From Chloropicon primus (lineage: Eukaryota), in assembly GCA_023205875.1 (NCBI GenBank), contig CP060768.1, forward strand, positions 434,001-498,000: a DNA stretch of 64,000 bases. The letters run 5' to 3'. The position numbers were made by a program, and so were the translations under genes. The stretch's first letter is position 1. Each line of letters begins with the position of its first letter. The notes beneath the pieces are model-generated. The model did no database searches and was not told where the DNA came from. It was given only the letters and a program-made list of their open reading frames with translations. Positions 1,009 through 64,000 of the stretch are shown one piece after another.

Positions 1009-1860
1009 TTGTTGGAGGTTTTCCCCTGTTGGTGGGATTCCAGTGTATACCAGTTTGGTCACACCCAAAGGACAACCCACAAAACGTTTTCTCGTTCTCA
1101 CTTGCTGGACAAGGCACTGGTAAAAAAACTAGCCTCGCGAGAGGAAGGGAGGAGGACGCCGAGTGAAACCCTAGCAGTCATGGCGCGATCAGGGAAGCGC
1201 CGTAAGAAAAAGGAGAAGCAGGGGAGTGGCTCGACGAGTTCCACAAGGAGGTCGCACTCTGGCGAGAGTCATGCTCAGGGCGCTTCGAAGTCGGGGCAGG
1301 AGTCTCCGACGACGGAGCCGTTACGTCGGTTCTGGAATCAGGGCTTGCAGTTGCTCTACTCGTTGTGCCTGCTTCCTATCGCGGACGACCCCGCCTCTGC
1401 GGGTGAGGGTTCGAGCACGCCTCGCAAGAAGCGGGGGCGGAAGCGGAAGGAGAAGCCGCTGGACGACCCCGCCTCTGCTTTCGAGGAGGGTTCGAGCACG
1501 CCTCGCAAGAAGCGGGGGGGGAAGCGGAAGGGGAAGCCGCCGGAGGCGGCTTCCTCTGCGGGTGAGAGTTCGAGCTCGTCAGGCAAGCCTCGCAAGAAGC
1601 CTCGCAAGAAGGGCAAGAAGAAGAACAAGAAGAAGGGTAAGAAGAAGAAGAACAAGAGGGGGAAGAAAGCAGGGAAGCAGCCGGGTGGCTTGGCGGACGA
1701 CAGCGTGAAGAAGACCTGGTTCTCATCGATCAAGAGAGAACTTGAAGAGGTAAAGTGTCCGAAGACGGGATGGAGGTCGTGCTTGAACCTTCCAGAAGAT
1801 TCTGTGGTATCCGTCGAGACATTGCAGTCGCCCGCCAAAAGGAAGAGGGGCAGAAACTGA
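1009..1860 (+). CDS. Lys/Arg-rich ORF with NLS-like repeats; probable N-terminal part of the Fanzor protein, out of frame by -1 (first ATG at 1180)
   Basis: Repeats of STPRKKRGRKRK, a poly-K tract and KKTWFSSIK; overlaps the Fanzor ORF by ~100 nt in a different frame. Confidence 0.5.
   Translation: MLEVFPCWWDSSVYQFGHTQRTTHKTFSRSHLLDKALVKKLASREEGRRTPSETLAVMARSGKRRKKKEKQGSGSTSSTRRSHSGESHAQGASKSGQESPTTEPLRRFWNQGLQLLYSLCLLPIADDPASAGEGSSTPRKKRGRKRKEKPLDDPASAFEEGSSTPRKKRGGKRKGKPPEAASSAGESSSSSGKPRKKPRKKGKKKNKKKGKKKKNKRGKKAGKQPGGLADDSVKKTWFSSIKRELEEVKCPKTGWRSCLNLPEDSVVSVETLQSPAKRKRGRN
1382..1610 (+). repeat. About three ~78-81 bp in-frame direct repeats
   Basis: Unit GGACGACCCCGCCTCTGC...GGGTTCGAGCACGCCTCGCAAGAAGCGGGG... 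at ~1383 and ~1461, with a degenerate third copy at ~1542. Confidence 0.85.
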
Positions 1861-3347
1861 AGACCTCCAAGCTATTGTCGGAGCGAACGGTGATACGGAC
1901 GAGGAAGCTGAGGATGCGCTTGAACCCTGAGCAGGCGAAGTGCCTTTGCAACTGGATGGGAGCTGCGCGTTTCACATACAACAAGTGTTTGGAGGCGGTC
2001 AAGAAGGAGGGTTTTCCGCTGGTTTGGACCGTCCTGCTGGACAGATTTGTGACGGCCAAACCGCGACGCCCTGAGGTCTTTGAGGGGCTGGAGAAAGAGC
2101 TGAAAGAAATCCAATGCTCTCCACGGCCATGGACAAAACAGGAGGCAGAGCTTTTCGCGGCCAGAGAGAAGAGACTCGAGAGCCAAATTGGAGGCAGACG
2201 ATTTCGCGCCGAAGTGGCCAAGGACCGGGACTACGTTAGCGGGGCCTTTGTAAATCAGAAGCATCCTTGGCTGAAGGATACCCCCTGTGCCATCAGACAA
2301 GCTGCCGTGCGAAGTCTCATCAAGGCATGGGATTCGAACATCGCGAAGCAGGAAGCGATGAAGGAGCGCGGCGAGGAGAAGGGGCACCGCTTCGTTCTCA
2401 AGTATCGTCAACGTCAGCAACCGAGCTCTTGGACCATTGAAATTGATGCAAGAGAGTTAAAGAACGTGGAGACGATCGAAAGGCCAAACACGAGGCACAA
2501 GGATGACACCAAGCACAACAAACGACGCAAGTGGACCAAGCTGGAGGTGTTCAAGAAGAAGATGGCCGGCGGGCCCCTGTACTTGACGGAGGAGATCCCC
2601 GGGGGCAAGATCGAGGGTGCCGTGAAGATCACAAGAAATCGCCTTGGGCAGTTCCACATGCACATTCCCATCGCGACGCCATGGGATCGCCTGCCACCCC
2701 TGAAGCCTGAGAACAAGCGGAAGGTTGTCGCCCTGGATCCGGGAGTCAGGACCTTTCAGACGTCGTACTCGCCGCAAGAAGGCGTCGGGGAGTATGCCAC
2801 GGGCGAGCGAGGCTTCGCGAGGCTGTTCAACCTCTGCTGGAGGATTGATGAGATCATTTCCGAGCGCAAAGACCCAAAGGTGAAGCTCCCTTACCTCGAC
2901 CGCCGCGACTTGAAGAGACAGCAATACGCCTGCATGGAGAAACTTCGAGGTCTGACGAACGAGCTTCACAAAAAGGTAGCCAACGATCTATGCAGGAGGT
3001 TCGACACAATCCTCCTCCCGGAGTTCAAGTCCCAAGACATGGTGAAGAAGAACAACAACGGGAGACGCCGAGTGATCAGGAAGAAGACGGCTCGCACGCT
3101 CTTGACGTTGAGGCACTATGCGTTCAGAACGTTCTTGGCTTCCAAGGTGCTCTTGCACGGCAGTGAGCTGGCGATCGTGACGGAGGAGTACACCTCCAAG
3201 ACCTGTGGCAGGTGCGGACACATCAAGGACAACCTGGGTGGAGCAGAGGTGTACAAGTGCCAGAAGTGTGGCTTCAAGTGCGGTCGGGATGTGAACGGGG
3301 CACGCAACGTCCTCCTGAAGCACTTGCGTCAACCAAAAAGTGTGTAA
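1755..3347 (+). CDS. Fanzor2 / IS607-family TnpB-like RNA-guided DNA endonuclease
   Basis: N-terminal OrfB HTH-like RTRKLRMRLNPEQ...WMGAARFTYN; RuvC-I KVVALDPGVRTF; RuvC-II FDTILLPEF with the rearranged Glu in VTEEYTSKTC; zinc ribbon CGRC...CQKC; RuvC-III RDVNGARN. Confidence 0.93.
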   Translation: MSEDGMEVVLEPSRRFCGIRRDIAVARQKEEGQKLKTSKLLSERTVIRTRKLRMRLNPEQAKCLCNWMGAARFTYNKCLEAVKKEGFPLVWTVLLDRFVTAKPRRPEVFEGLEKELKEIQCSPRPWTKQEAELFAAREKRLESQIGGRRFRAEVAKDRDYVSGAFVNQKHPWLKDTPCAIRQAAVRSLIKAWDSNIAKQEAMKERGEEKGHRFVLKYRQRQQPSSWTIEIDARELKNVETIERPNTRHKDDTKHNKRRKWTKLEVFKKKMAGGPLYLTEEIPGGKIEGAVKITRNRLGQFHMHIPIATPWDRLPPLKPENKRKVVALDPGVRTFQTSYSPQEGVGEYATGERGFARLFNLCWRIDEIISERKDPKVKLPYLDRRDLKRQQYACMEKLRGLTNELHKKVANDLCRRFDTILLPEFKSQDMVKKNNNGRRRVIRKKTARTLLTLRHYAFRTFLASKVLLHGSELAIVTEEYTSKTCGRCGHIKDNLGGAEVYKCQKCGFKCGRDVNGARNVLLKHLRQPKSV

Positions 3348-3520
3348 CTCCTCAGGGTTGCACATACGTTTGTTAGTACGGGCTGCCGTGCGTGGGCGGA
3401 AGTATTCGTTCATGTACGGTGGAATGGTCGTGGTAGGGCCGAATTACCCTGCCGAGAAACTTACAAACTCGGTGAAACGACCTTTGCAGAAAACTAACAG
3501 GTAAGTAGGGGCCGGACGGT
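3340..3520 (+). ncRNA. Fanzor omegaRNA: scaffold to ~3500, predicted guide from ~3501; the 5' end may overlap the ORF
   Basis: Conserved with the second copy up to AAAACTA(A/G)C(A/G)G, then abruptly divergent. 18-bp G-U-rich stem at 3383-3422; GGTCGT/ACGACC pairing (3426-3431/3477-3482); TTTGTTAGT/ACTAACAGG pairing (3369-3377/3493-3501). Confidence 0.8.
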
Positions 3521-3938
3521 TCTCTCTTTCAGTGGAAAGGAGAACTTGCCTTTGTGCTTCCAGTATTGACTGTGATTTTCCTACCGTCCTTTCGTGACTT
3601 TTCTGTGTGCTGTTTTTGATCTGATGTCTGAACACCATAACAAGGATTTTCAACCCTCCTAACAGAAATTTGAAATTTGAAATCGATCCCCCCCCCAAAA
3701 TCCAAAATAGGTTTTCATTCTCTGCTCTGCTCGTCGGGGTCGGCCAAGAGAGGGAAGCTTTGGTGAGGGTTTTGAGTCCGAGGACGATACGTGAGGCTCC
3801 AAAGGGCGAGGTCTCGTGAAAGATTGTCTCGTGGGCTTTCGTTCGACACCTCATTTTCTCGATTTGGTGACCGGAGTGCGTCGGTGGACGGGGCGTTGTT
3901 GGCGAAAGACCACCACCTGACCTGAGGAGAGGGAAGCC

Positions 3939-29888: not shown

Positions 29889-30463
29889 TTTGTTCTTGTT
29901 GTTCTTGTTGTTCTTGTTGTCGGAGAGAGAGGAGGTGTGTGCTGACGTGAGACCCCGTGCGTGCGTGCGTGCGTGCGTGCGTGCGTCTCCTCCTCCTCCT
30001 CCTCAACGGGGCGTCGCGTCGTCCAACCAAGCGAGAGAGAGGCGCGTGTGCGTTACTCGTAACCGACGCCGACCGGACGACGGCGGGAAAAAACCCGACG
30101 GACGGGTAACGTCACACGATCAAAATGAAAAAAATCCCTTTCGAGATTTTTATTTTTTTGATTTTCGAGATCTCCTTTTGTTTTCCCCGTAACCGCAAGG
30201 TGCGATTCTCTGTTTGTTTTGGTCTCCGAAAAATTAGGAGAATGCGTCGAGGAGCGAGGTCAAACCCTAGCGCTGGCTCTTGAGGCCCAGAAGTGCGAAG
30301 CAGAGCGGCGACCAAGACCGAGGACCGAGAATTGCATTACGTACAAGGTGAGGGGGGATTGAGGTTTTGTGTTGTGTTGGGTTTGGTTTTGTTTTGTTTT
30401 GTTTTGTTTTGTTTTGGAGAAAAGCCTGACCACGTTTTGGGTTTTTGGGTTTTGGTGGAAGAT

Positions 30464-31087
30464 ATGGCGATGATGATGAGGAAGAGGGTGGCGTTGTGCC
30501 TCCTGGTGGCGGCGTTGGGGGTGGCGACGGGGGCCGTGGCCCAGGACATCCCTGACAGCTGCAAGAGCCTCGACCCCAGCACGCTGGACACGTCGGATCC
30601 CTCCGCGTTCGCGACCCTGCTGCCTTGCACGGGGTGGGACCAGACGTGCCAGAGCAACGTCCTGGCCGCGGGGGCCTCGTGCATGCAGGAGATCCAGGCC
30701 ATCAGCAAGTGGGCGAACTCCAGCAGCGTCCAGAGCGACCTCGCGTCCGAGACCGGCCTGAGCGCCAACTCGACCGACGCGGACGTGAAGAACACCACCG
30801 CGAGCGTCACCCCGGACCAGGTCAAGGCCGACCTCGACGCGAGGATCCCTGACCTCAAGACGGCCCTCGGAGGGTGCTGCGGCGGGGGCATCACCCCCAC
30901 CTGCTGCGCGGCGATGACCCCCGTGATCTCCGGAAAGTGCCTCTGCCAGCAGAAGCCCGTGGAGCTCCTCAAGGGGGTCCTCGGCCAGGACCCATCCGAG
31001 TTCATCGGGGTCGCGGCCGAGGTCCTCGGGAAGCTCGGCTGCAACGCCCTCGATGGTGCGCAGGTCTACCCCCAGTGCGAGGCGTGA
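30464..31087 (+). CDS. Secreted cysteine-rich protein of unknown function
   Basis: Signal peptide (VALCLLVAALGVATGAVAQ), CC...CC...CLC pattern, host-like GC3. Confidence 0.75.
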   Translation: MAMMMRKRVALCLLVAALGVATGAVAQDIPDSCKSLDPSTLDTSDPSAFATLLPCTGWDQTCQSNVLAAGASCMQEIQAISKWANSSSVQSDLASETGLSANSTDADVKNTTASVTPDQVKADLDARIPDLKTALGGCCGGGITPTCCAAMTPVISGKCLCQQKPVELLKGVLGQDPSEFIGVAAEVLGKLGCNALDGAQVYPQCEA

Positions 31088-31229
31088 GCAGGTGAGCGAT
31101 TGATTGATTGCTGGGAGGAAATGGATCGCCCATTTTGGATTTTGGAGGGATGGACTCGTGTTTGTTGAGGAAAAAGAAAAAAAGAAAAAAAAGCTTTAAA
31201 AAGTTTTGCGTGTTCATCCAATATTCATC

Positions 31230-31390
31230 CATGCCCATGGCCTTTCTTTCCGCTAGTTTTGTGCAAAGGTCGTTTCAGTTTGCGTTTCTCGAAATGACCA
31301 TTCCGCCCTTAGCAAGCAAGCAAGCTCGCGAGCAAGGGCAGCTCGTACTAACAAACGCGTGTGCAACCCTGAGGAGTTACAGATTTTTTG
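31230..31390 (-). ncRNA. Second Fanzor omegaRNA (scaffold ends ~31250; predicted guide from ~31249 downward)
   Basis: Same conserved blocks as copy 1 (TAACTCCTCAGGGTTGCACA, TTTGTTAGTACG, GGAATGGTC, GAAACGACCTTTGCA) with structure-preserving substitutions. Confidence 0.75.
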
Positions 31391-31632
31391 GTTCCCACAA
31401 GTGCTTGAGAAGGATGTTGCGTGACCCGTTCGCATCCCGACCGCACTTGAAGCCACACTCCTGGCACTTGTACACCTCTGCTCCACCCAGGTTCTCCTTG
31501 ATGTGTCCGCACCTGCCACAGGTCTTGGAGGTGTACTCCTCCGTCACGATCGCCAGCTCACTGCCGTGCAAGAGCACCTTGGAAGCCAAGTACGTTCTGA
31601 ACGCATAGTGCCTCAACGTCAAGAGCATGCGA
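31377..31632 (-). pseudogene. 5'-truncated Fanzor fragment (catalytic Glu, zinc ribbon and RuvC-III only)
   Basis: LLTLRHYAFRTYLASKVLLHGSELAIVTEEYTSKTCGRC...RDANGSRN, nearly identical to 3092-3347; homology stops abruptly at ~31632. Confidence 0.92.
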
Positions 31633-31944
31633 ATCTTTGGTGGTCGCGCTTAGGATGTTCTGTCCCATGTCCGTTGTGCTCTGACAGTTCGACTCTTCCA
31701 TGCCAAGTACCTCGTTCAACACTCCTCCTGCCTTCACAACGAATTCGTCTTGGACCAGGCTCACGGCCTTCGATGAGAAGCTCTCCAAGTCGCTCTTCTC
31801 GTTGGAAATTTTGCAAGACAAGCTGCTGAGGTTGGCATCCTCCTCTTCGAGCAAACCATCGATTGCCTTGCAATCGACCTTGCCATCGACGTTTTTAGGA
31901 TGGAACGAACGAACGATGTGCCGGCGGTCAACGGAGACATACAT
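31633..31944 (-). other. Unidentified coding-like fragment fused to the truncated Fanzor
   Basis: Open frame MYVSVDRR...SATTKDS with no recognisable motif, unrelated to Fanzor copy 1. Confidence 0.35.
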
Positions 31945-31974
31945 AGTGTGGTGGAGGAGGATAGAATATTTCAG

Positions 31975-32031
31975 CTTTAGGATTGCTTTTGGGGGATTAG
32001 GATTAGGATAGTCTTTAGGATCGGCTTAGGA
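31975..32031 (-). repeat. Degenerate telomere-like (CCTAA/TTAGG) repeat patch
   Basis: TTTAGGATTG...GGATTAGGATTAGGATAGTCTTTAGGATCGGCTTAGGA; 18 bp identical (inverted) to 37914-37931. Confidence 0.75.
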
Positions 32032-34837
32032 GTCCTGTAGCATCATGTTGACGAGCATTGGATGCGGGGTCACTACCTCTTTGGCCTTTCTGTTCTCGGA
32101 CTTCTGCCGGCCGGAGCCAACGTTCACGCCGCCTCCTTCTGCGTTCTCCTTGTACCCCTTGCCGATTTTGCAATCGTTATGGCTGCAGGACAAGCACCTC
32201 AAGCCCCTTGAACCGTTGGTTGGGATCAAGGGGATCGAGGGGATCTTCTCGATCAAGGCTTTCTCGGACTCAGGTTTCTTTGTACACGGAACACAAAACC
32301 AGAAGCCAATCGTGTTCTTCAGTTGTGTCATGCCAATTTCCTTGCTCATGTCCCAAAGCTCCTTCTTGTCGACAGACTCCGTCGCTTTCAAGAAGCATCC
32401 GAACGAACACCACTGGTTAAAGCCGCTTTTGAATATGAAACGATGGCAGTACCAGCACCAGTTCGACAAGAGGTAAGTGGGATTGTGCCCAGCTCGATCA
32501 CGTTCCTCCCCCGGAACCGGTGTCAGAGCTCCTGTTTTGACCAAGGGGCACTCAGCGTGGCCAAGATAATCACAGCAAACACAGCGCAGAGCTTGAATAC
32601 CGTCTGTAGTAGGAACTTGAGGAAACTCCTTCATCGGCTCCCTTGCTTTGGTCTTCCTCTTCCCTTTCGTGTTGGTCTTGGCCTGTGTCTTCCTTGTCGT
32701 ACCAGTGCTCAAGGGACTGCTGCTGCAACGTTCACAGGGACATGCAGCGGCATCAAATTTGCGAAGCTCTCTCTCCCTCTCCCCGCCGTCCTCGGCGTCG
32801 CTGTCCACCAGAATGCAAGGACGACTCCTCTTGCACATGTCACAACCACAAATGCATCGAGTATGTGCTGGAGCGGTGTTCGCGGTGCCTGTTGTCCTGG
32901 ACGACTTGCGAGAGCATTTACCAGCGCAGGGGCATTCGAAGAAATCTTTTTGAGTCACAGAGATCGCGGTTTCTGGGAAACATTCATTCTCAAACACGAC
33001 ATCGACATGTTCTCCCTTTAGTGCATCCGCAAAGTACTCAAAGACTCTGCTCAATGCGTCTTCATCCAAGCCGTGTCCATCACGGTTTTCAAACAACTCG
33101 TCCCTCACGGAGTGAACGTGGCAGTATTGCCTGTAGGTCTCCAGGAACTCCATGTGCTCCTCGCGAAGAATGATGTCGTAGTTCGCTTCCGTGATGGAAC
33201 AAGCAGCGACGAGCACACGAACTGTGGGTTGGTTCTTCCATGCGCGGACGAGATCACTCGCCCGTTGCTCCACAAAGCGCTTTCCAAGAAGATACTCCTC
33301 ATCTCCAGCGAGAACCTGGGCTACGGCCTCTTGAACGTGTCTCTCCTCGGTGACGACGGCATCCACTTCTGTCAAGCACGCAACCGTTGCTATGTTCGCC
33401 TTACAGCACCTTTCCAAGAGCGTCCCGAGCGTCGCAAGCTCCCTTGTAAGCCGATCTGCACGGGTGCAGAGTTCTGCGTATTTGCCCTCGTCGCAGACCT
33501 TCTTCACCCATTCTTGGACGGCAGCCTCCTCCGAGGTCGAGCCTCTGCAAAGGTCCCAATTGTGATTTCAATCACCGGCAGCTTCCGCTTAGCGCAACAT
33601 CCTTCTGAAGGTTGTCGCGCACCTTGAGAGGACGTGGAGGAGTAGGCACCGTTGGACATATATCGAAGTAGACTTGGCGACGTCAGTTCCAGGCGACGTA
33701 CGGGCAATACCTACGAGGAGAAGGGGTTTCCCGTGCTTCTGCTCCCCCGGCTTCTCCAGATTCTCCAGCTTGTGCCTCAGGACGTGCTCGACGTGTTCGA
33801 CGAGGAGACAAAGTTCCTCAGAAGTGTGTTGGCCCGATGCTACAGAACAACGGGTGGCGCCGGACTTGAGCATGCAGTGCGACGCCGAGTACACGGCTTG
33901 CCCGTCCGAGGTGCTTGCAGCCTTGCTCATGTACTTTTTGAGCTCCTCTTTCTTTTCCTCCCCAATCAAAGCTGCTGCATGGGACGTCGGGATACACGCC
34001 AGTATAGAGGCCTGCCCTGCGCGCTCAGCAAGGTAGTCGAGGTCCTTGTAAGCTTGTGGCCGTCTCGACAATCGCGACAAGGCAGCTACAAGAAGCGCGC
34101 AAGGCTCGCCCTTCTCCTTCGCAAGGGCAAGAGCTTTCGTAAGAACTTTGCGGTCCTTGAGGCATCGCGAGCGGCTGGCGGTCCCAAGCTCCACGAAACG
34201 AAATGCTTTCACCTGTTTAGGAAGATCTTTGCCGAGCAACGCGCTTGAGATCGTGGCCGCCTGACCAGCGAGCTTGTTCCCAAGCCCCTCCTGCACAATG
34301 GACTCGCGGAGGAAGACGATGCAGTGGGTCAGTCCTTTCAAGCCCTCAACGAGCTCCAGGTAGACTCCGCCACGGCCTCGGACCACGCGGACCAGGGTCA
34401 GCTCCTCAGGCTGGCGAGTTCGCTCCGCCCGTGTACCCTCGCGTGCAAGGGTGGGCCGCGGGCCAGCTGATTCGTCTGCGAAGCGAAGAGAGGCAATAAG
34501 TCCATCCGCATTGAGAAGCGTCGTCGGATCCACGTTTTCCTCGATGGCGGCCATCTCCCGCTCCCTATGAGGTCCCGCGGAGGTCGCCATGGCCACTGTG
34601 CAAGCGTTGGTGTCCAGGCTTGCCGCACGGCTGCCCGCTGCCCTGCAAGTGGGTGAAGACAGAGACATTGGCACCACAATCCTTGGGCGCCACCCGCCAT
34701 CCTTGGGCGCCATCCCCCTGGAGAACCGCGGCCGGGGTGGCGCCACCAGCCCCTTCTTCACATGACGTCCCAGTATTCGTCAGTCTCCTCTTCTTCGTCG
34801 GCAACCCGCGGCTGTAGTATTCCAGGAGGTAACTCAT
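32026..34837 (-). CDS. Spliced gene with two tandem serine-recombinase (resolvase-like) catalytic domains and C-terminal Cys-rich zinc-finger modules; intron 33545-33622; 5' end uncertain
   Basis: Domain 1: CIVFLRESIVQ...AGQ...FVE...DRKVL...LLVAALSRLSR. Domain 2: LVGIARTSPG...SIYVQ...LCTRADRLTRE. A 78-nt GT..TTTGCAG intron removes the only two in-frame stops between ORFs 33589-34761 and 32026-33507. Confidence 0.7.
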
Positions 34838-35122
34838 CGCTTTCTCTCTGGTCGTGGTCTTCTCGTCCCCACTCGTCGGCCGCCTCGTTCGCGGCTCTGG
34901 CGTTACGGCGGCTCTCTTTCTCTCTCCAGCTCCCGCCAGGTCACACACCTCGCCGTCCTCCTCGCCGTTACGATCTTATTGTCCTAGTATAATTAGACTA
35001 AACCTAAACCTAGTATAATTAACGTCTCTCACAGAACCCTTGTCTCACGGAGCAAGAGGTAAGGCGGCTGTTGTTTCGCCGCGGTGTTGTTTCGACACCG
35101 GATGTGATCCCCGTACTAGAGC

Positions 35123-35214
35123 CTCACCCAGGCGGGGTCGAACCGCCGACCTCCCGATTTCTCCCGATGAGGGGATAACAGTCGGACGCTCTAACCAAAC
35201 TGAGCTATGGGTGA
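35123..35214 (-). tRNA. trnN: tRNA-Asn(GUU) with a 17-nt intron (35159-35175) at the canonical 37/38 position
   Basis: Acceptor TCACCCA/TGGGTGA+G, D-arm AGCTCAGTTTGGTTAGAGC, anticodon arm TCCGA-CTGTTA^A-TCGGG, T-arm GGCGGTTCGACCCCGCC. Confidence 0.93.
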
Positions 35215-35599
35215 TTCGCACGGGGTTTCTACTCTGCTGGAAAAAAACAAAGAATTATGCTATGTATACTGTTGTTGCGCAGAGTAGAAACTCCACCTTA
35301 GGATCGATCGCCCTCTTCAGAGGTGCATGGATCCCCAGGGTAGTCGGAGGGGAGGGAGAGCGAAGGATTGGCGGGGAAGGCAACGCAGTCCAACGTGGGT
35401 CTCTTCTCTTGATCCTACCACCGGCGTTGACCAGCGTTGGTGGAAGGCTTTGAGCGCGAGGCGAGAAGTCCATTCGTGCATGGATCCCCATGGATGTAGT
35501 CGTCGGGTACCTCAGGAGGTCCGACGACTACCCTGGGCCTGAAACTCGGAGGGGAGGGAGAGCCTAACTAAAGGAAAGGCACTTTGTTGAGCATTGCCT

Positions 35600-35870
35600 T
35601 CGTTGCCTTCTTCCTGAGATTCGTGGGCTTGTTGTCGCTGCTGCTGCCGAAGCCTTCCTCCTCCTCGTCTGATCCTCGGTTCGCCTCGATCCAGTCGGCG
35701 TCGGCGATGTCATCATTACCGTTCTCCTCTGAAGATTCTATGCAACTGTCTGGGTCCGAACCACAAGGCGGAGGCAGGTCCTGGCTTCGAGCCCACTTGA
35801 GAACATCAAGGTGCCCTCCGTAAGCTGCCCATTCGCAAGTCTCCGCGGGACCTTTCTCACCTGACAGGCC
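35600..35870 (-). pseudogene. Fragment of an ankyrin-repeat family gene (3' end)
   Basis: Translates as WAAYGGHLDVLKWARSQDLPPPCGSD...; strong nucleotide similarity (inverted) to 58925-59070. Confidence 0.7.
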
Positions 35871-36384
35871 TGGAAGTGACGAGGAGGAGGAGGCACAGGA
35901 AACCGAGGAGGAGGAGGAGGACTACTCTGATGACGAGTACGCCGACCATTCTGACGACTTGTTCGACGATGACGGTGATGGTTGTTGACGACCGATCTCC
36001 TAAACCCAGCATCCTCATTCATCCTCAGTGTAAATCTGAACAAAAAACAACAAGAACCAAACTACACTACACTACACTACACCACGCGGTGGTCAGTCAT
36101 CCTATTACTACAACAAAAAAACTCCTCCCTCCCTCCCTCCCTGGTCATCATCACCTCATCATCATCCAAAGCAAAACTAAAACACCAAAAGAAAACTTCG
36201 TCGTCGTCGTCGTCAGTATCGCCACCATCACAACTTTCTCTCTCTCTCTTTGATGCTGATGCTGTTCATCATCATCATTATTCATCTGTCCTAAACCTTA
36301 AAGACAAGCCTTGCACGGTTAAAAACCCAAGACCCGCCGGATTGGCCTAGGTTTTCTTTTTCTGTAGCAGCAAGTGATTTGAGC

Positions 36385-36850
36385 CCGTTGCTTCGTGGGA
36401 AATAGAAAGCAGGGCTTTTGCCCAATGCTGCGTTAGGTTTTTTCCAGGAACCTAAACCCCTAAACTCACCTTCATCTTCACTCCGTTGCTTCGTGGGAAA
36501 TAGAAAGCAGGGCTTTTGCCCAATGCTGCATTAGGTTTTTTTTCAGAAACCTTCACTCCTCCTCTCCCTCCCCCCAACACCCAAATCCCCCTCTCTGTCA
36601 AAAATCAGCCTCATCTCCTCCATCACCCTCCTCCTCAGCTCCTTCACCTCCACTCCGTTGCTTCGTGGGAAATAGAAAACAGGGGGGCTTTTGCCCAATG
36701 CTGCACTAGGTTTTTATCAGAAACCTAAACCCCTAACCTCACCTTCACTCCTCCTCCCCCTCCTCCTCTCCCTCCCCCCCAACACCCAAATCCCCCTCTC
36801 TGTCAAAAATCAGCCTCATCTCCTCCAACACCCTCCTCCTCAGCTCCTCC
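36385..36850. repeat. Tandem segmental duplications of the PPR-gene 3' end and downstream region
   Basis: CCGTTGCTTCGTGGGAAATAGAAA...TTTTGCCCAATGCTGC at ~36385, ~36483 and ~36654; CCCCAACACCCAAATCCCCCTCTCTGTCAAAAATCAGCC at ~36572 and ~36777. Confidence 0.9.
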
Positions 36851-37665: not shown

Positions 37666-37910
37666 CTTCGAGATGTCCTTGACCTGCTACCGCGCGCGCC
37701 GACGGCCGCCATCTTTTTCTTTTTTTTCAAGAGAGAGAGAGATCCGATGCCAGGAGCCAAAAAAAGAGAAAAGAAGGAGAGACGAGACTCCAATGGGACG
37801 GGACGTATTTGAGAAGGAAACCAAAGAAGAAGAAAAAAGAAAGAGGTCGGTCGGCCATACGATACACTACACACGCGGGTGGTGCGTGCATGCATGACCC
37901 ACGACTCGGC

Positions 37911-38230
37911 CAATCCTAAGCCGATCCTAAAACCAATCCTAAGCCTAAGCCGATCCAGAAACCCATTCTGAGCCGCTCCTAAAACCATCCTAAGCCGCTC
38001 CTAATCCTAAAACCATTCTGAGCCGCTCCTAAGCGATCCTAATCCTAAAAACATCCTGAGCTGCTCCTCAACTCATCCTAAGCCGTTCCTAACCGCTCCT
38101 AATCCTAAAACCCATCCTAAAGGATCGTAATCGATCCTAAAACCATCCTGAGCCGCTCCTAATCGATCCCAAAACACCCAATCCCCCCCAAACCATTCCC
38201 ATTTTCCCCAAAAGGCCTAACACCTAAACC
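37911..38230 (+). repeat. Degenerate telomere-like satellite (CCTAA core; TCCTAAAACCATCCTAAGCCGC-type higher-order unit)
   Basis: Dense run of CCTAA/CCTGA cores with recurring AGCCGCTCCTAATCCTAAAACCAT. Confidence 0.85.
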
Positions 38231-58399: not shown

Positions 58400-59072
58400 A
58401 CCATCATAACGGGCGAGCACGAGGGCGAACCAGGAGGGGAACGGGAACGAGAGAGAGAGAAACGAAGAGGACGGGAGCGCGAGGAGGAGGAAGTGGTGAG
58501 GATCTGACGACGACACGAAACGAGAGAGAGAGGCAGAAAGAGATCGAGGAGGAGACCACCGAGGAGGGGAGGCGCAAGAGGCAGAGGACGGAGCCCAAAC
58601 ACGCACTGGATTTGCTGCCAGGGAGTGCGTGGCTCCTGGTTTTGAAGAAGCTGAGCCCCCACGACCAACTTGCTTTCGGGTTGACCTGCAAGGCGTTCCT
58701 CGAGGCGGTGACGGCGACGGCGAGCCCCAAGTGGAAGAAGAAGGCTCTTCCTCTGAGGACGGACCTGAGACGTGAAACATTGTTCGAGGAGATGCCTAGC
58801 TTCAGCATGGGCTGGTTCCAGTGGGTGGCGAGCCAAGGGAACCCTTTGGATATTAAAGGTGTGAACTTTGGCGTGGTAGGATGTTCAGGCGAACCGCATG
58901 AGTGCCGGGCACGCTTGTTCTGGTGCAGCTGAAGGAGGTCGCCTTGATGTTCTCAAGTGGGCTCGAAGTCAGGATCCGTCTTGTGATTGGGACCAGTGGG
59001 TTGCGTAGAATCTTCAGAGGAGAACGGTAACGATGACATCGCCGACGCCGACTGGATCGAGGCGAACCGATG
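58400..59072 (+). pseudogene. Degenerate F-box-like/ankyrin-repeat family gene
   Basis: LDLLPGSAWLLVLKKL...DQLAFGLTCKAF (F-box-like), then an out-of-frame AAEGGRLDVLKWARSQDPSCDWD with a stop. Confidence 0.65.
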
Positions 59073-59195
59073 AAGGTGCCACTCGGGCTCGTTCCAAACC
59101 AGGTTGCTTCAAAGGTAGTTCTAGGTTTGAGTGTGACCTCGTGCTATCTTGGCTTTGATTAAGGAAATAGCGAACTTTTGTCCCATGGACGTTCT

Positions 59196-62341: not shown

Positions 62342-62470
62342 GGTCGGTTTAATAAGGGGGGGGCGGGGGGGTAATAATAATGAGGATGATGATGAAATTG
62401 GTTAGGGTTTTCGTGGTTTTCGTGGTTTTCGTGGTTTTAGGATTGGTGGTGGTTTTAGGATTTTAGGGGA
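62332..62470 (+). repeat. Degenerate telomere-like TTAGG(G)/GGTTTTCGT repeats
   Basis: GTTAGGGTTTTCGTGGTTTTCGTGGTTTTCGTGGTTTTAGGATTGG...TTTTAGGATTTTAGGGG. Confidence 0.6.
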
Positions 62471-62855
62471 GAGGATGATGAGAAGGGGGGGAGGAAGCGG
62501 TCACAAGCGGTCGCTGTCATCATCGGAACGGTTCCAGTCTCCGTCAGCGTCAGCGTAGTTTCCCTCACCCTCCTCTCAGGACTTCCAATAGTCCTGGCGG
62601 TTCCAATCGGTAACGATGTCCTCGCAGAGCTCCATGAACCTCGCTGTTTGCTCGGCAGACCAACGATTGATGGGGTCTGCGTCGTTGCTGGGTCGTCGAA
62701 CTTGCGCTGGCTTCTTCTTCTTGACCTCGGCCATGTACTTGGCCTTCAATGCTTTTCGGCTTGGGATATAATCTTCCTTCTCGAAAAGTTCGTGCTCCGC
62801 CAACCATTCCTCCCGCAAAGATATCCAATGGCCCTGGCTTCGAGCCCACTGAGTT

Positions 62856-64000
62856 TTAGATCTCCTTCTCCGACTCCTCCCCTGGTTTCGCTTGCTCCGT
62901 ATTCACCTCGCTATTGTTCTCAAGCATCATGAGTATCATGTTGACGAGCATTGGATGCCGGATCACTACCTCTTCGGCCTTTCTGTTCTCGGACTCCAGC
63001 CGGCGGGAGCCAACGTTCACGCCGCCTCCTTCTGCGTTCTCCTCGTACCCCTTGCCGATTTTGCAATCGTTATGACTGCAGGACAAGCACCTCAAGCCCC
63101 TTGAACCCTTGGTTGGGATCAAGGGGATCGAGGGGATCTTCTCGATCAAGGCTTTCTCGGACTCAGGTTTCTTTGTACACGGAACACAAAACCAGAAGCC
63201 AATCGTGTTCTTCAGTTGTGTCATGCCAATTTCCTTGCTCATGTCCCAAAGCTCCTTCTTGTCCACGAACTTCGTGGCTTTCAAGAAGCAACCGAACGAG
63301 CACCACTGGCTGAATTCGCTTTTCGTGATCAAGCGGTGGCAGTACCAGCACCAGTCCGAGAGGAGGCAATCGGGATTGTGCCCAGCTCGATCACGTTCCT
63401 CCCCAGGAACCGGGGTCAGAGCTCCTGTTTTGACCAAGGGGCACTCAGCGTGGCCAAGATAATCACAGCAAACGCAGGGCAGGGCTTGCATACCGTCTGT
63501 AGTAGGAACTTGAGGAAACTCCTTCATCGGCTCCCTTGCTTTGGTCTTCCTCTTCCCTTTCGTGTTGGTCTTGGCCTGTGTCTTCCTTTTCGTGCCAGTG
63601 CTCAAGGGACTGCTGCTGCAAGGTCCACAGGGACATGCGGCGGCATCGAATTTGCGAAGCTCTCTCTCCCTCTCCCCGCCGTCCTCGGCGTCGCTGTCCA
63701 CCAGAATGCAAGGACGACTCCTCTTGCACATGTCACAACCACAAATGCATCGAGTATGTGCTGGAGCGGTGTTCGCGGTGCCTGTTGTCCTGGACGACTT
63801 GCGAGAGCATTTACCAGCGCAGGGGCATTCGAAGAAATCTTTTTGAGTCACAGAGATCGCGGTTTCTGGGAAACATTCATTCTCAAACACGACATCGACA
63901 TGTTCTCCCTTTAGTGCATCCGCAAAGTACTCAAAGACTCTGCTCAATGCGTCTTCATCCAAGCCGTGTCCATCACGGTTTTCAAACAACTCGTCCCTCA
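62856..64000 (-). CDS. Second copy of the double-serine-recombinase/Cys-rich gene (3' part only; continues beyond the window)
   Basis: Near-identical to 32039-33107 over ~1.07 kb, with a different C-terminus. Confidence 0.85.
   Translation of the reverse strand, partial: RDELFENRDGHGLDEDALSRVFEYFADALKGEHVDVVFENECFPETAISVTQKDFFECPCAGKCSRKSSRTTGTANTAPAHTRCICGCDMCKRSRPCILVDSDAEDGGERERELRKFDAAACPCGPCSSSPLSTGTKRKTQAKTNTKGKRKTKAREPMKEFPQVPTTDGMQALPCVCCDYLGHAECPLVKTGALTPVPGEERDRAGHNPDCLLSDWCWYCHRLITKSEFSQWCSFGCFLKATKFVDKKELWDMSKEIGMTQLKNTIGFWFCVPCTKKPESEKALIEKIPSIPLIPTKGSRGLRCLSCSHNDCKIGKGYEENAEGGGVNVGSRRLESENRKAEEVVIRHPMLVNMILMMLENNSEVNTEQAKPGEESEKEI

Follow-up and report, generated by a model that had tools for sequence, protein, structure and literature searches.

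A 64,000-nucleotide stretch of the Chloropicon primus genome (hereafter the window) carries what we read, with a probability of about 0.5, as the damaged version of a multi-copy gene without introns, one whose protein joins two serine-recombinase catalytic domains and Cys-rich modules in a single chain and likely serves an undescribed mobile element of eukaryotes as transposase or integrase. The named homologs of the window gene belong to this same green alga. The narrower conclusion, that a eukaryotic repeat family encodes a conserved serine recombinase with two domains, holds at the level of sequence.

Organization of the gene copy

The initial annotation of this locus had described two resolvase-like motif sets, a second domain split over two same-frame ORFs and a Cys-rich end, and we find all of these features. 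The four motifs lie on the minus strand where they had been placed, ORFs 34779-33589 and 33567-32026 share a frame with two stops between them, and the C-terminal third of an intact copy contains 26 Cys in 330 residues (Table 1). Resolvase is the sole Pfam match of each window ORF and falls below the cut-off in both cases (E 0.0022 and 0.0066). The intact form of the gene encodes about 950 amino acids from an ATG at 34837, or 902 from an ATG at 34713. Its Cys-rich modules are likely zinc-binding and the central region is without a family match. Third-position GC content (GC3) of the gene is 0.62-0.67 compared with 0.81-0.96 in five of seven host frames, a weak contrast; one of the remaining frames has a value of 0.64 and the other, probably off frame, 0.29.

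Table 1 Features of the two-domain gene and its surroundings in the window
Feature	Position	Strand	Basis or remark
Damaged tandem serine-recombinase gene copy	32026..34837	-	tblastn, intact records against the window
FLRES motif	34314-34300	-	Domain 1; Ser codon 34302-34300
LSRLSR motif	34080-34063	-	Domain 1
IARTS motif	33708-33694	-	Domain 2; Ser codon 33696-33694
ADRLTR motif	33459-33442	-	Domain 2
Catalytic domain 1	33870..34330 (approximate limits)	-	Pfam Resolvase E 4.6e-4 alone; profile alignment 91 columns
Catalytic domain 2, broken in window copy	33250..33720 (approximate limits)	-	
Central conserved region, 3' of domain 2 (H..F...HV pattern)	32960..33250	-	Aligned with the distant family
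Cys-rich modules (CxCxxC, CxxC..C..CWxCH..CxxxC, CxxC pairs)	32026..32940	-	
Lesion zone (1, 1, 10 and 9 bases missing compared with sister copies)	33473..33627	-	Contains the claimed intron
17-base deletion near the 5' end of the gene	34621..34622	-	Haplotype common to P0019 and P0026
Upstream short direct repeats (10-mer 35094, 35078; 13-mer 35021, 34995)	34983..35094	-	
Intron-containing tRNA gene	35123..35214	-	Rfam RF00005, 53.5 bits; anticodon GTT by eye
3' segment common to other copies, contains an open frame	31633..32025	-	X3 and X5 contigs
3' remnant of known C. primus Fanzor2 element, fused to the gene copy	31245..31632	-	Pfam PF07282 E 9.8e-19
Complete-looking C. primus Fanzor2 element	1010-3642	+	ORF 1746-3347
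Second gene copy, 3' third, runs off the window	62856..64000	-	95.7% over 1069 bases

The interruption in domain 2 is coding sequence

The two stops had originally been explained by a 78-nt intron at 33622-33545. A GT..AG stretch of that length is indeed present; however it was not seen spliced in the contigs examined, is coding in the sister copies and is only one of 28 in-frame GT/GC..AG pairs able to remove both stops. We placed contigs of four RNA-type runs (X3, X5, X6 and X7, from three studies) on positions 30200-36000, where the RNA status of the runs is predicted and the contigs show presence only, possibly deriving from sister copies. Three of the four runs (X3, X5 and X6) bridge the claimed intron unspliced and carry 21 extra letters, one behind 33627, one behind 33584, ten behind 33542 and nine behind 33473, while the joint 33545/33622 is absent among the five joints listed. 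A host GT..AG intron at 30345-30458 is missing from contigs of X6 and X7, so these runs do contain spliced sequence.

The related proteins give the same picture. Eight of the nine Chloropicon records spanning the claimed intron read the region as coding, wholly or partly, and the remaining one is the gene model of the window itself, in which another intron had been guessed. Once the 21 extra letters are included the region encodes the same peptide as the intact records, a conserved peptide that in the window is split over three frames. Intact sister copies of 902-950 amino acids translate uninterrupted across the region, and P0026, which differs from the window protein at two aligned residues outside the lesion zone, also reads through. 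Because the sister copies read through and the peptide is divided among three frames, the window copy as assembled is, on these comparisons, damaged by small deletions and the supposed intron is coding sequence.

We therefore give very little credence to the gene being functional with a 78-base intron spliced out, even though the stretch has GT..AG borders with a plausible acceptor, its removal would keep the frame and the bridging contigs may all derive from sister copies rather than from the window locus. Against it stand the unspliced contigs, the read-through copies and the peptide in three frames, and the splice would in addition remove from domain 2 the last part of helix A together with the strand behind it. 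The suggested adaptation to spliceosomal expression is likewise unsupported, the intact genes being single frames, and damage to the window copy is what the initial annotation had itself named as refuting the splice.

Evidence for two serine-recombinase domains

Pfam Resolvase (PF00239) matched intact Chloropicon records in two stretches, at 40.6-41.4 bits in all four records scanned (cut-off 23.3 bits), which upholds the proposal of tandem resolvase-type domains and Cys modules in a single eukaryotic protein. Domain 2 is the best of these stretches in the intact copies, and domain 1 taken alone scores 20.7 bits, below the cut-off. Intact domain 2 could be aligned with reference recombinases over 151 columns (hhalign probability 65%, E 8e-6). 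When family profiles were compared with the reference recombinases, domain 1 scored 28.1 and domain 2 scored 30.8, values that none of 40 column shuffles reached (maximum 18.4), the comparison having used 12 reference rows of which one was a junk 16-residue translation; against a later 11-row profile lacking that row domain 1 scored 3.2 bits, within the shuffle range (maximum 7.0). Control regions from the N-terminal and central parts of the protein failed to beat column shuffles against the same references, the central region scoring at shuffle level. Among ESM Atlas feature matches 27 of 30 belonged to Resolvase clusters, the best at 0.92, a level that is also reached by 4 to 10 in 100 shuffled proteins.

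All four motifs occur together in 11 of the 52 family records (six from Chloropicon and five distant), most of the others being fragments or gapped gene models. Both domains contain equivalents of R8, S10, R68 and R71, with an acidic residue near the D36 position. The Tyr6 position is occupied by Phe, His or Tyr in domain 1 and by Ile in domain 2, the D67 position of domain 1 holds Ser or Asn, and the Arg45 equivalent is missing from domain 2. In Tn3 resolvase the residues that matter most are Y6, R8, S10, D36, R68 and R71, and D67 is dispensable, according to the available text of PMC2794168.

Structural comparison contributed little. Two AlphaFold models had pLDDT values of 33 and 32, too low to give a fold, and searches that used a low-pLDDT model as query (Foldseek at E 0.001 and VIA at Z 5) returned no match, a result that is uninformative for a model of this quality. 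Judged by eye, the order of secondary-structure elements in domain 1 is compatible with a resolvase. Sequence searches of the PDB found no meaningful match. No significant likeness was found between domain 1 and domain 2, either pairwise (228 of 1000 shuffles were as good) or by profile, so an old duplication and a fusion are indistinguishable.

A distant family with the same order of parts

An exhaustive single-sequence search of 1.84 billion representatives found nine proteins at E 0.001, to which word searches added more. The distant group consists of single-frame proteins of about 1,008-1,180 amino acids on contigs of up to 1.84 Mb, for which we infer a eukaryotic host. Its members are collinear with the Chloropicon proteins from end to end at 25-27% identity and keep the two R-x-S motifs, the two R-x-x-R motifs and, in unchanged order, the Cys modules, with domain 1 forming the best-conserved block between the two lineages (35% over 135 residues). 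No distant relative taken singly matched Pfam Resolvase. In one distant member a weak AP2 match (E 0.0018) replaces the last Cys module.

The loci of the relatives were sought in viral contigs, metagenome contigs and prokaryote genomes and none was located, although such pattern scans have little power when relatives are distant; with tblastn plasmids gave no match and phages a single one at E 2. Among the individual records, P0016 has two CWxCH Cys modules and lacks the recombinase motifs and P0037 has AP2-like ends instead, and the DNA-binding tail thus looks exchangeable.

Dispersed copies and decayed derivatives

The mobile-element reading was originally drawn from the window alone and fits the distribution of the repeat, in which one trait of transposable elements, dispersed near-identical copies accompanied by decayed (truncated or deleted) derivatives, is found. 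Nineteen Chloropicon records (P0002-P0009, P0017-P0026 and P0030) lie on 13 contigs of differing size from at least two annotations, and the six loci that carry names are distributed over four chromosome numbers. Most of these records are broken or truncated and pieces of the gene are fused into ferrochelatase and oxidoreductase gene models. A 419-base internal deletion that removes most of domain 2 is present in two runs, and three records end in the altered tail expected from it (matched by eye). Some records are identical between two annotations, and those insertions are therefore not recent.

The second copy in the window, whose translation is part of record P0018, differs from the first in its 3' flank and in having a longer C-terminus. 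The dN/dS ratio between the two is 0.37 (Fisher p 0.0015). They are identical over 33107-32756 and diverge only beyond, a mosaic pattern. None of the ten long heterozygous indels in Supplementary Data 8 of PMC6731263 is recognisably this gene over the first 400 letters of each, and three of the ten are the Fanzor element. Hints of the ends come from single contigs only, at 35093 and 31632. Row 7 of the same table is a 2.5-kb heterozygous insertion whose visible start apparently encodes an AP2-like peptide (by eye), possibly another active element.

These observations bear on whether the gene moves itself. It could serve a larger element or an endogenous virus as a resolvase-like accessory, or belong to a family of host genes that has spread through duplication and gene conversion, and the mosaic pattern, the differing C-termini and 3' neighbours of the two copies and the failure to find ends or a polymorphic insertion in the contigs and the ten published indels would fit such an origin. 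We nevertheless hold it to be rather improbable, as the neighbours of the gene are ordinary host genes (PPR, APP1, acetyltransferase), the viral contigs contain no relative and a maintained host family would not be expected to have most of its records broken or truncated.

A further question concerns the division of labour between the domains. In five records none of 215 positions varies in domain 2 and the linker and 12 of 155 vary in domain 1, which could reflect weaker constraint on domain 1. The element might then be the same mobile element in which only domain 2 cuts, domain 1 serving as a structural or regulatory partner or making a nickase-like half-active unit. This greater variability among copies, together with the weaker match of domain 1 and its Ser or Asn in place of Asp67, speaks for such an arrangement; we consider it unlikely, however, as the R-x-S and R-x-x-R motifs of domain 1 are kept in both lineages, this domain is the block best conserved between them and the derivatives deleted for domain 2 retain it.

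Flanking sequence and candidate ends

The direct repeats upstream of the gene are candidates for a left end or for binding sites, and the farthest-upstream match to a sister copy ends at 35093. Repeats of this kind appeared in none of 5000 Markov shuffles, yet 59 of 369 real tiles also contain a 13-mer repeat. Upstream hairpins fold no better than shuffles. An intron-containing tRNA gene ends 30 bases short of the candidate left end; the 220 bases downstream of it contain no run of four T and ARAGORN failed to detect it. The proximity of the tRNA gene is a lead from a single locus. On the other side the 3' segment is a candidate right part of the unit. Its open frame has no Pfam match and is absent from the protein collection, and one X3 contig departs from the window at 31632.

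Several other repeats were observed in the region. Clusters of the telomere-like word CCTAA occur at 31976-32030, 36430-36735, 37909-38225 and 62400-62465, also away from the gene, and one of them begins at the stop of the gene, where the two C-terminal types part. There is also a 34-base match to the satellite at 37915-37948. Past the second copy a short minus-strand frame (62576-62902) has a weak Myb-like match (E 0.042), and an N-terminal Trp motif in the relative P0010 resembles this frame by eye. Pieces of a highly repeated LKWAR-type family, 87% alike and at high contig depth, lie at 35632-35828 and 58925-59073, one of them just upstream of the tRNA gene. Degenerate tandem duplications of about 100-200 bases occupy 36385-36848 at the 3' end of a PPR-like gene.

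The neighbouring Fanzor2 remnant

The gene copy is fused to a remnant of a C. primus Fanzor2 element. What is left of the element is the TNB zinc finger and a portion of the non-coding 3' end. The remnant matches 3092-3387 of the window at 94%, is alignable to about 3505 and lacks the 5' four-fifths of the Fanzor gene and the right end of the element. The full Fanzor2 has TGTT..AACA ends with AGGAT on both flanks (by eye), and its ORF is near-identical (by eye) to UPR03652.1 of Table S3 in PMC10711439, a paper whose available text assigns the C. primus Fanzor2 to non-IS607 elements. Two further observations concern these sequences: a frame at 1000-1860 upstream of the Fanzor2 ORF could represent a 5' exon or a start that has been frameshifted, and a 59-base GT..AG skip on the plus strand at 31277-31337, in the Fanzor 3' non-coding end, is seen in all four runs at high depth and reflects either an intron in antisense or Fanzor copies that differ from one another.

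The arrangement raises the question as to whether our gene could encode the TnpA of an IS607-like unit by which the adjoining Fanzor2 is carried or mobilised. The Fanzor piece follows the gene downstream and shares its strand, like TnpB in IS607, an X5 contig bridges the junction and Fanzor2 is often linked to serine recombinases (PMC13565253, in the text available). Such a unit appears highly improbable to us, as the piece is so incomplete at both its 5' side and right end, the second gene copy has no Fanzor piece, another copy departs at 31632 and the full Fanzor stands alone with its own ends and 5-base flanking repeat in a class of elements described as non-IS607 (PMC10711439), while the protein matches neither the IS607 model nor a MerR helix-turn-helix.

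Comparison with known recombinases

The predicted protein would work like a serine transposase or integrase, but in domain searches it lacks the features that define IS607 TnpA, the small resolvases or the large integrases. With the TnpA of IS607 and IS607EU it shares a serine-recombinase catalytic domain and occurrence in eukaryotes, and with these elements short direct repeats near an end, the end here being a candidate. IS607 TnpA however has a single catalytic domain after an N-terminal MerR-like helix-turn-helix (available parts of PMC3673617 and PMC4058570), whereas the present protein has two catalytic domains, 900-1180 amino acids, C-terminal Cys modules and no full TnpB partner. No Pfam match to a MerR-like helix-turn-helix was found in intact records at E up to 10, and an NCBIfam scan of P0023 gave no match to the IS607 transposase model and returned XisF alone (E 0.62). 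As to TnpB/Fanzor2 adjacency, a 3' remnant lies beside one of the two window copies and the full Fanzor is a separate element. IS607 elements are further characterised by GG at the junction and by the lack of both inverted repeats and a target duplication. IS607EU is given as the sole known eukaryotic DNA transposon with a serine recombinase in the accessible text of a 2026 review (PMC13565253), and the eukaryotic serine recombinases described in the text available of PMC3627910 and PMC3673617 are of IS607 type only.

Small resolvases and invertases (Tn3 resolvase, PinE; PF00239) provide the best sequence and feature match for both domains but have one domain plus a C-terminal helix-turn-helix in about 190 amino acids, and this helix-turn-helix was unmatched in the two-domain protein by Pfam. 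The large serine integrases and transposases (Bxb1-like, XisF) likewise have a large C-terminal part with Cys pairs after the catalytic domain, and an aliphatic residue at the Tyr6 position is also seen in two reference integrases, although the known enzymes have a single catalytic domain. Matches to this class were weak (XisF as above; PHROG integrase E 0.035), and at E up to 10 there was no match to the Pfam Recombinase or recombinase zinc-ribbon domain, though the central and Cys regions may be remote homologs. The nearest working analogy is the Crypton, a eukaryotic element with a site-specific-type recombinase and a likely circle (PMC13565253, in its accessible portion), which differs in using a tyrosine rather than a serine recombinase.

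The architecture had not been recognised when the locus was initially annotated and we likewise found no description of a tandem-domain family in the literature text available, with subscription papers and Repbase outside the search. The words "resolvase" and "recombinase" do not occur in the main texts of two Chloropicon genome papers, nor does "resolvase" occur in the supplements searched, files 13-20 of PMC6731263 lying outside the search.

Proposed mechanism and implications

Serine recombinases act as tetramers and exchange strands by rotation, and IS607 TnpA dimers have been proposed as the rotating pair (PMC4058570, available text). By the same chemistry two chains of the present protein would supply the four catalytic domains of a tetramer, cutting two duplexes and swapping strands by rotation. 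Their tether should permit rotation only where both domains of one chain turn together, so each chain would be a rotating pair. Domain 2, with the central region and Cys modules behind it, would hold the end of the element, and contact with the partner or target duplex would fall to domain 1, the more divergent of the two; the element would move via an excised circle with no classical target duplication. On this scheme we tentatively propose, as a possibility somewhat short of even odds, a new eukaryotic transposon superfamily that is independent of IS607, employs a fused two-site recombinase whose chain is a rotating dimer, is found in unrelated marine picoeukaryotes and possibly targets tRNA genes.

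If true, this would place a second, unrelated family of serine-recombinase transposons beside IS607EU and widen the range of eukaryotic transposition chemistries. A natural two-domain fusion would fix which subunits rotate together, making the subunit-rotation model testable for each active site, and an asymmetric single-chain recombinase that functions in nuclei may be of interest to genome engineers.
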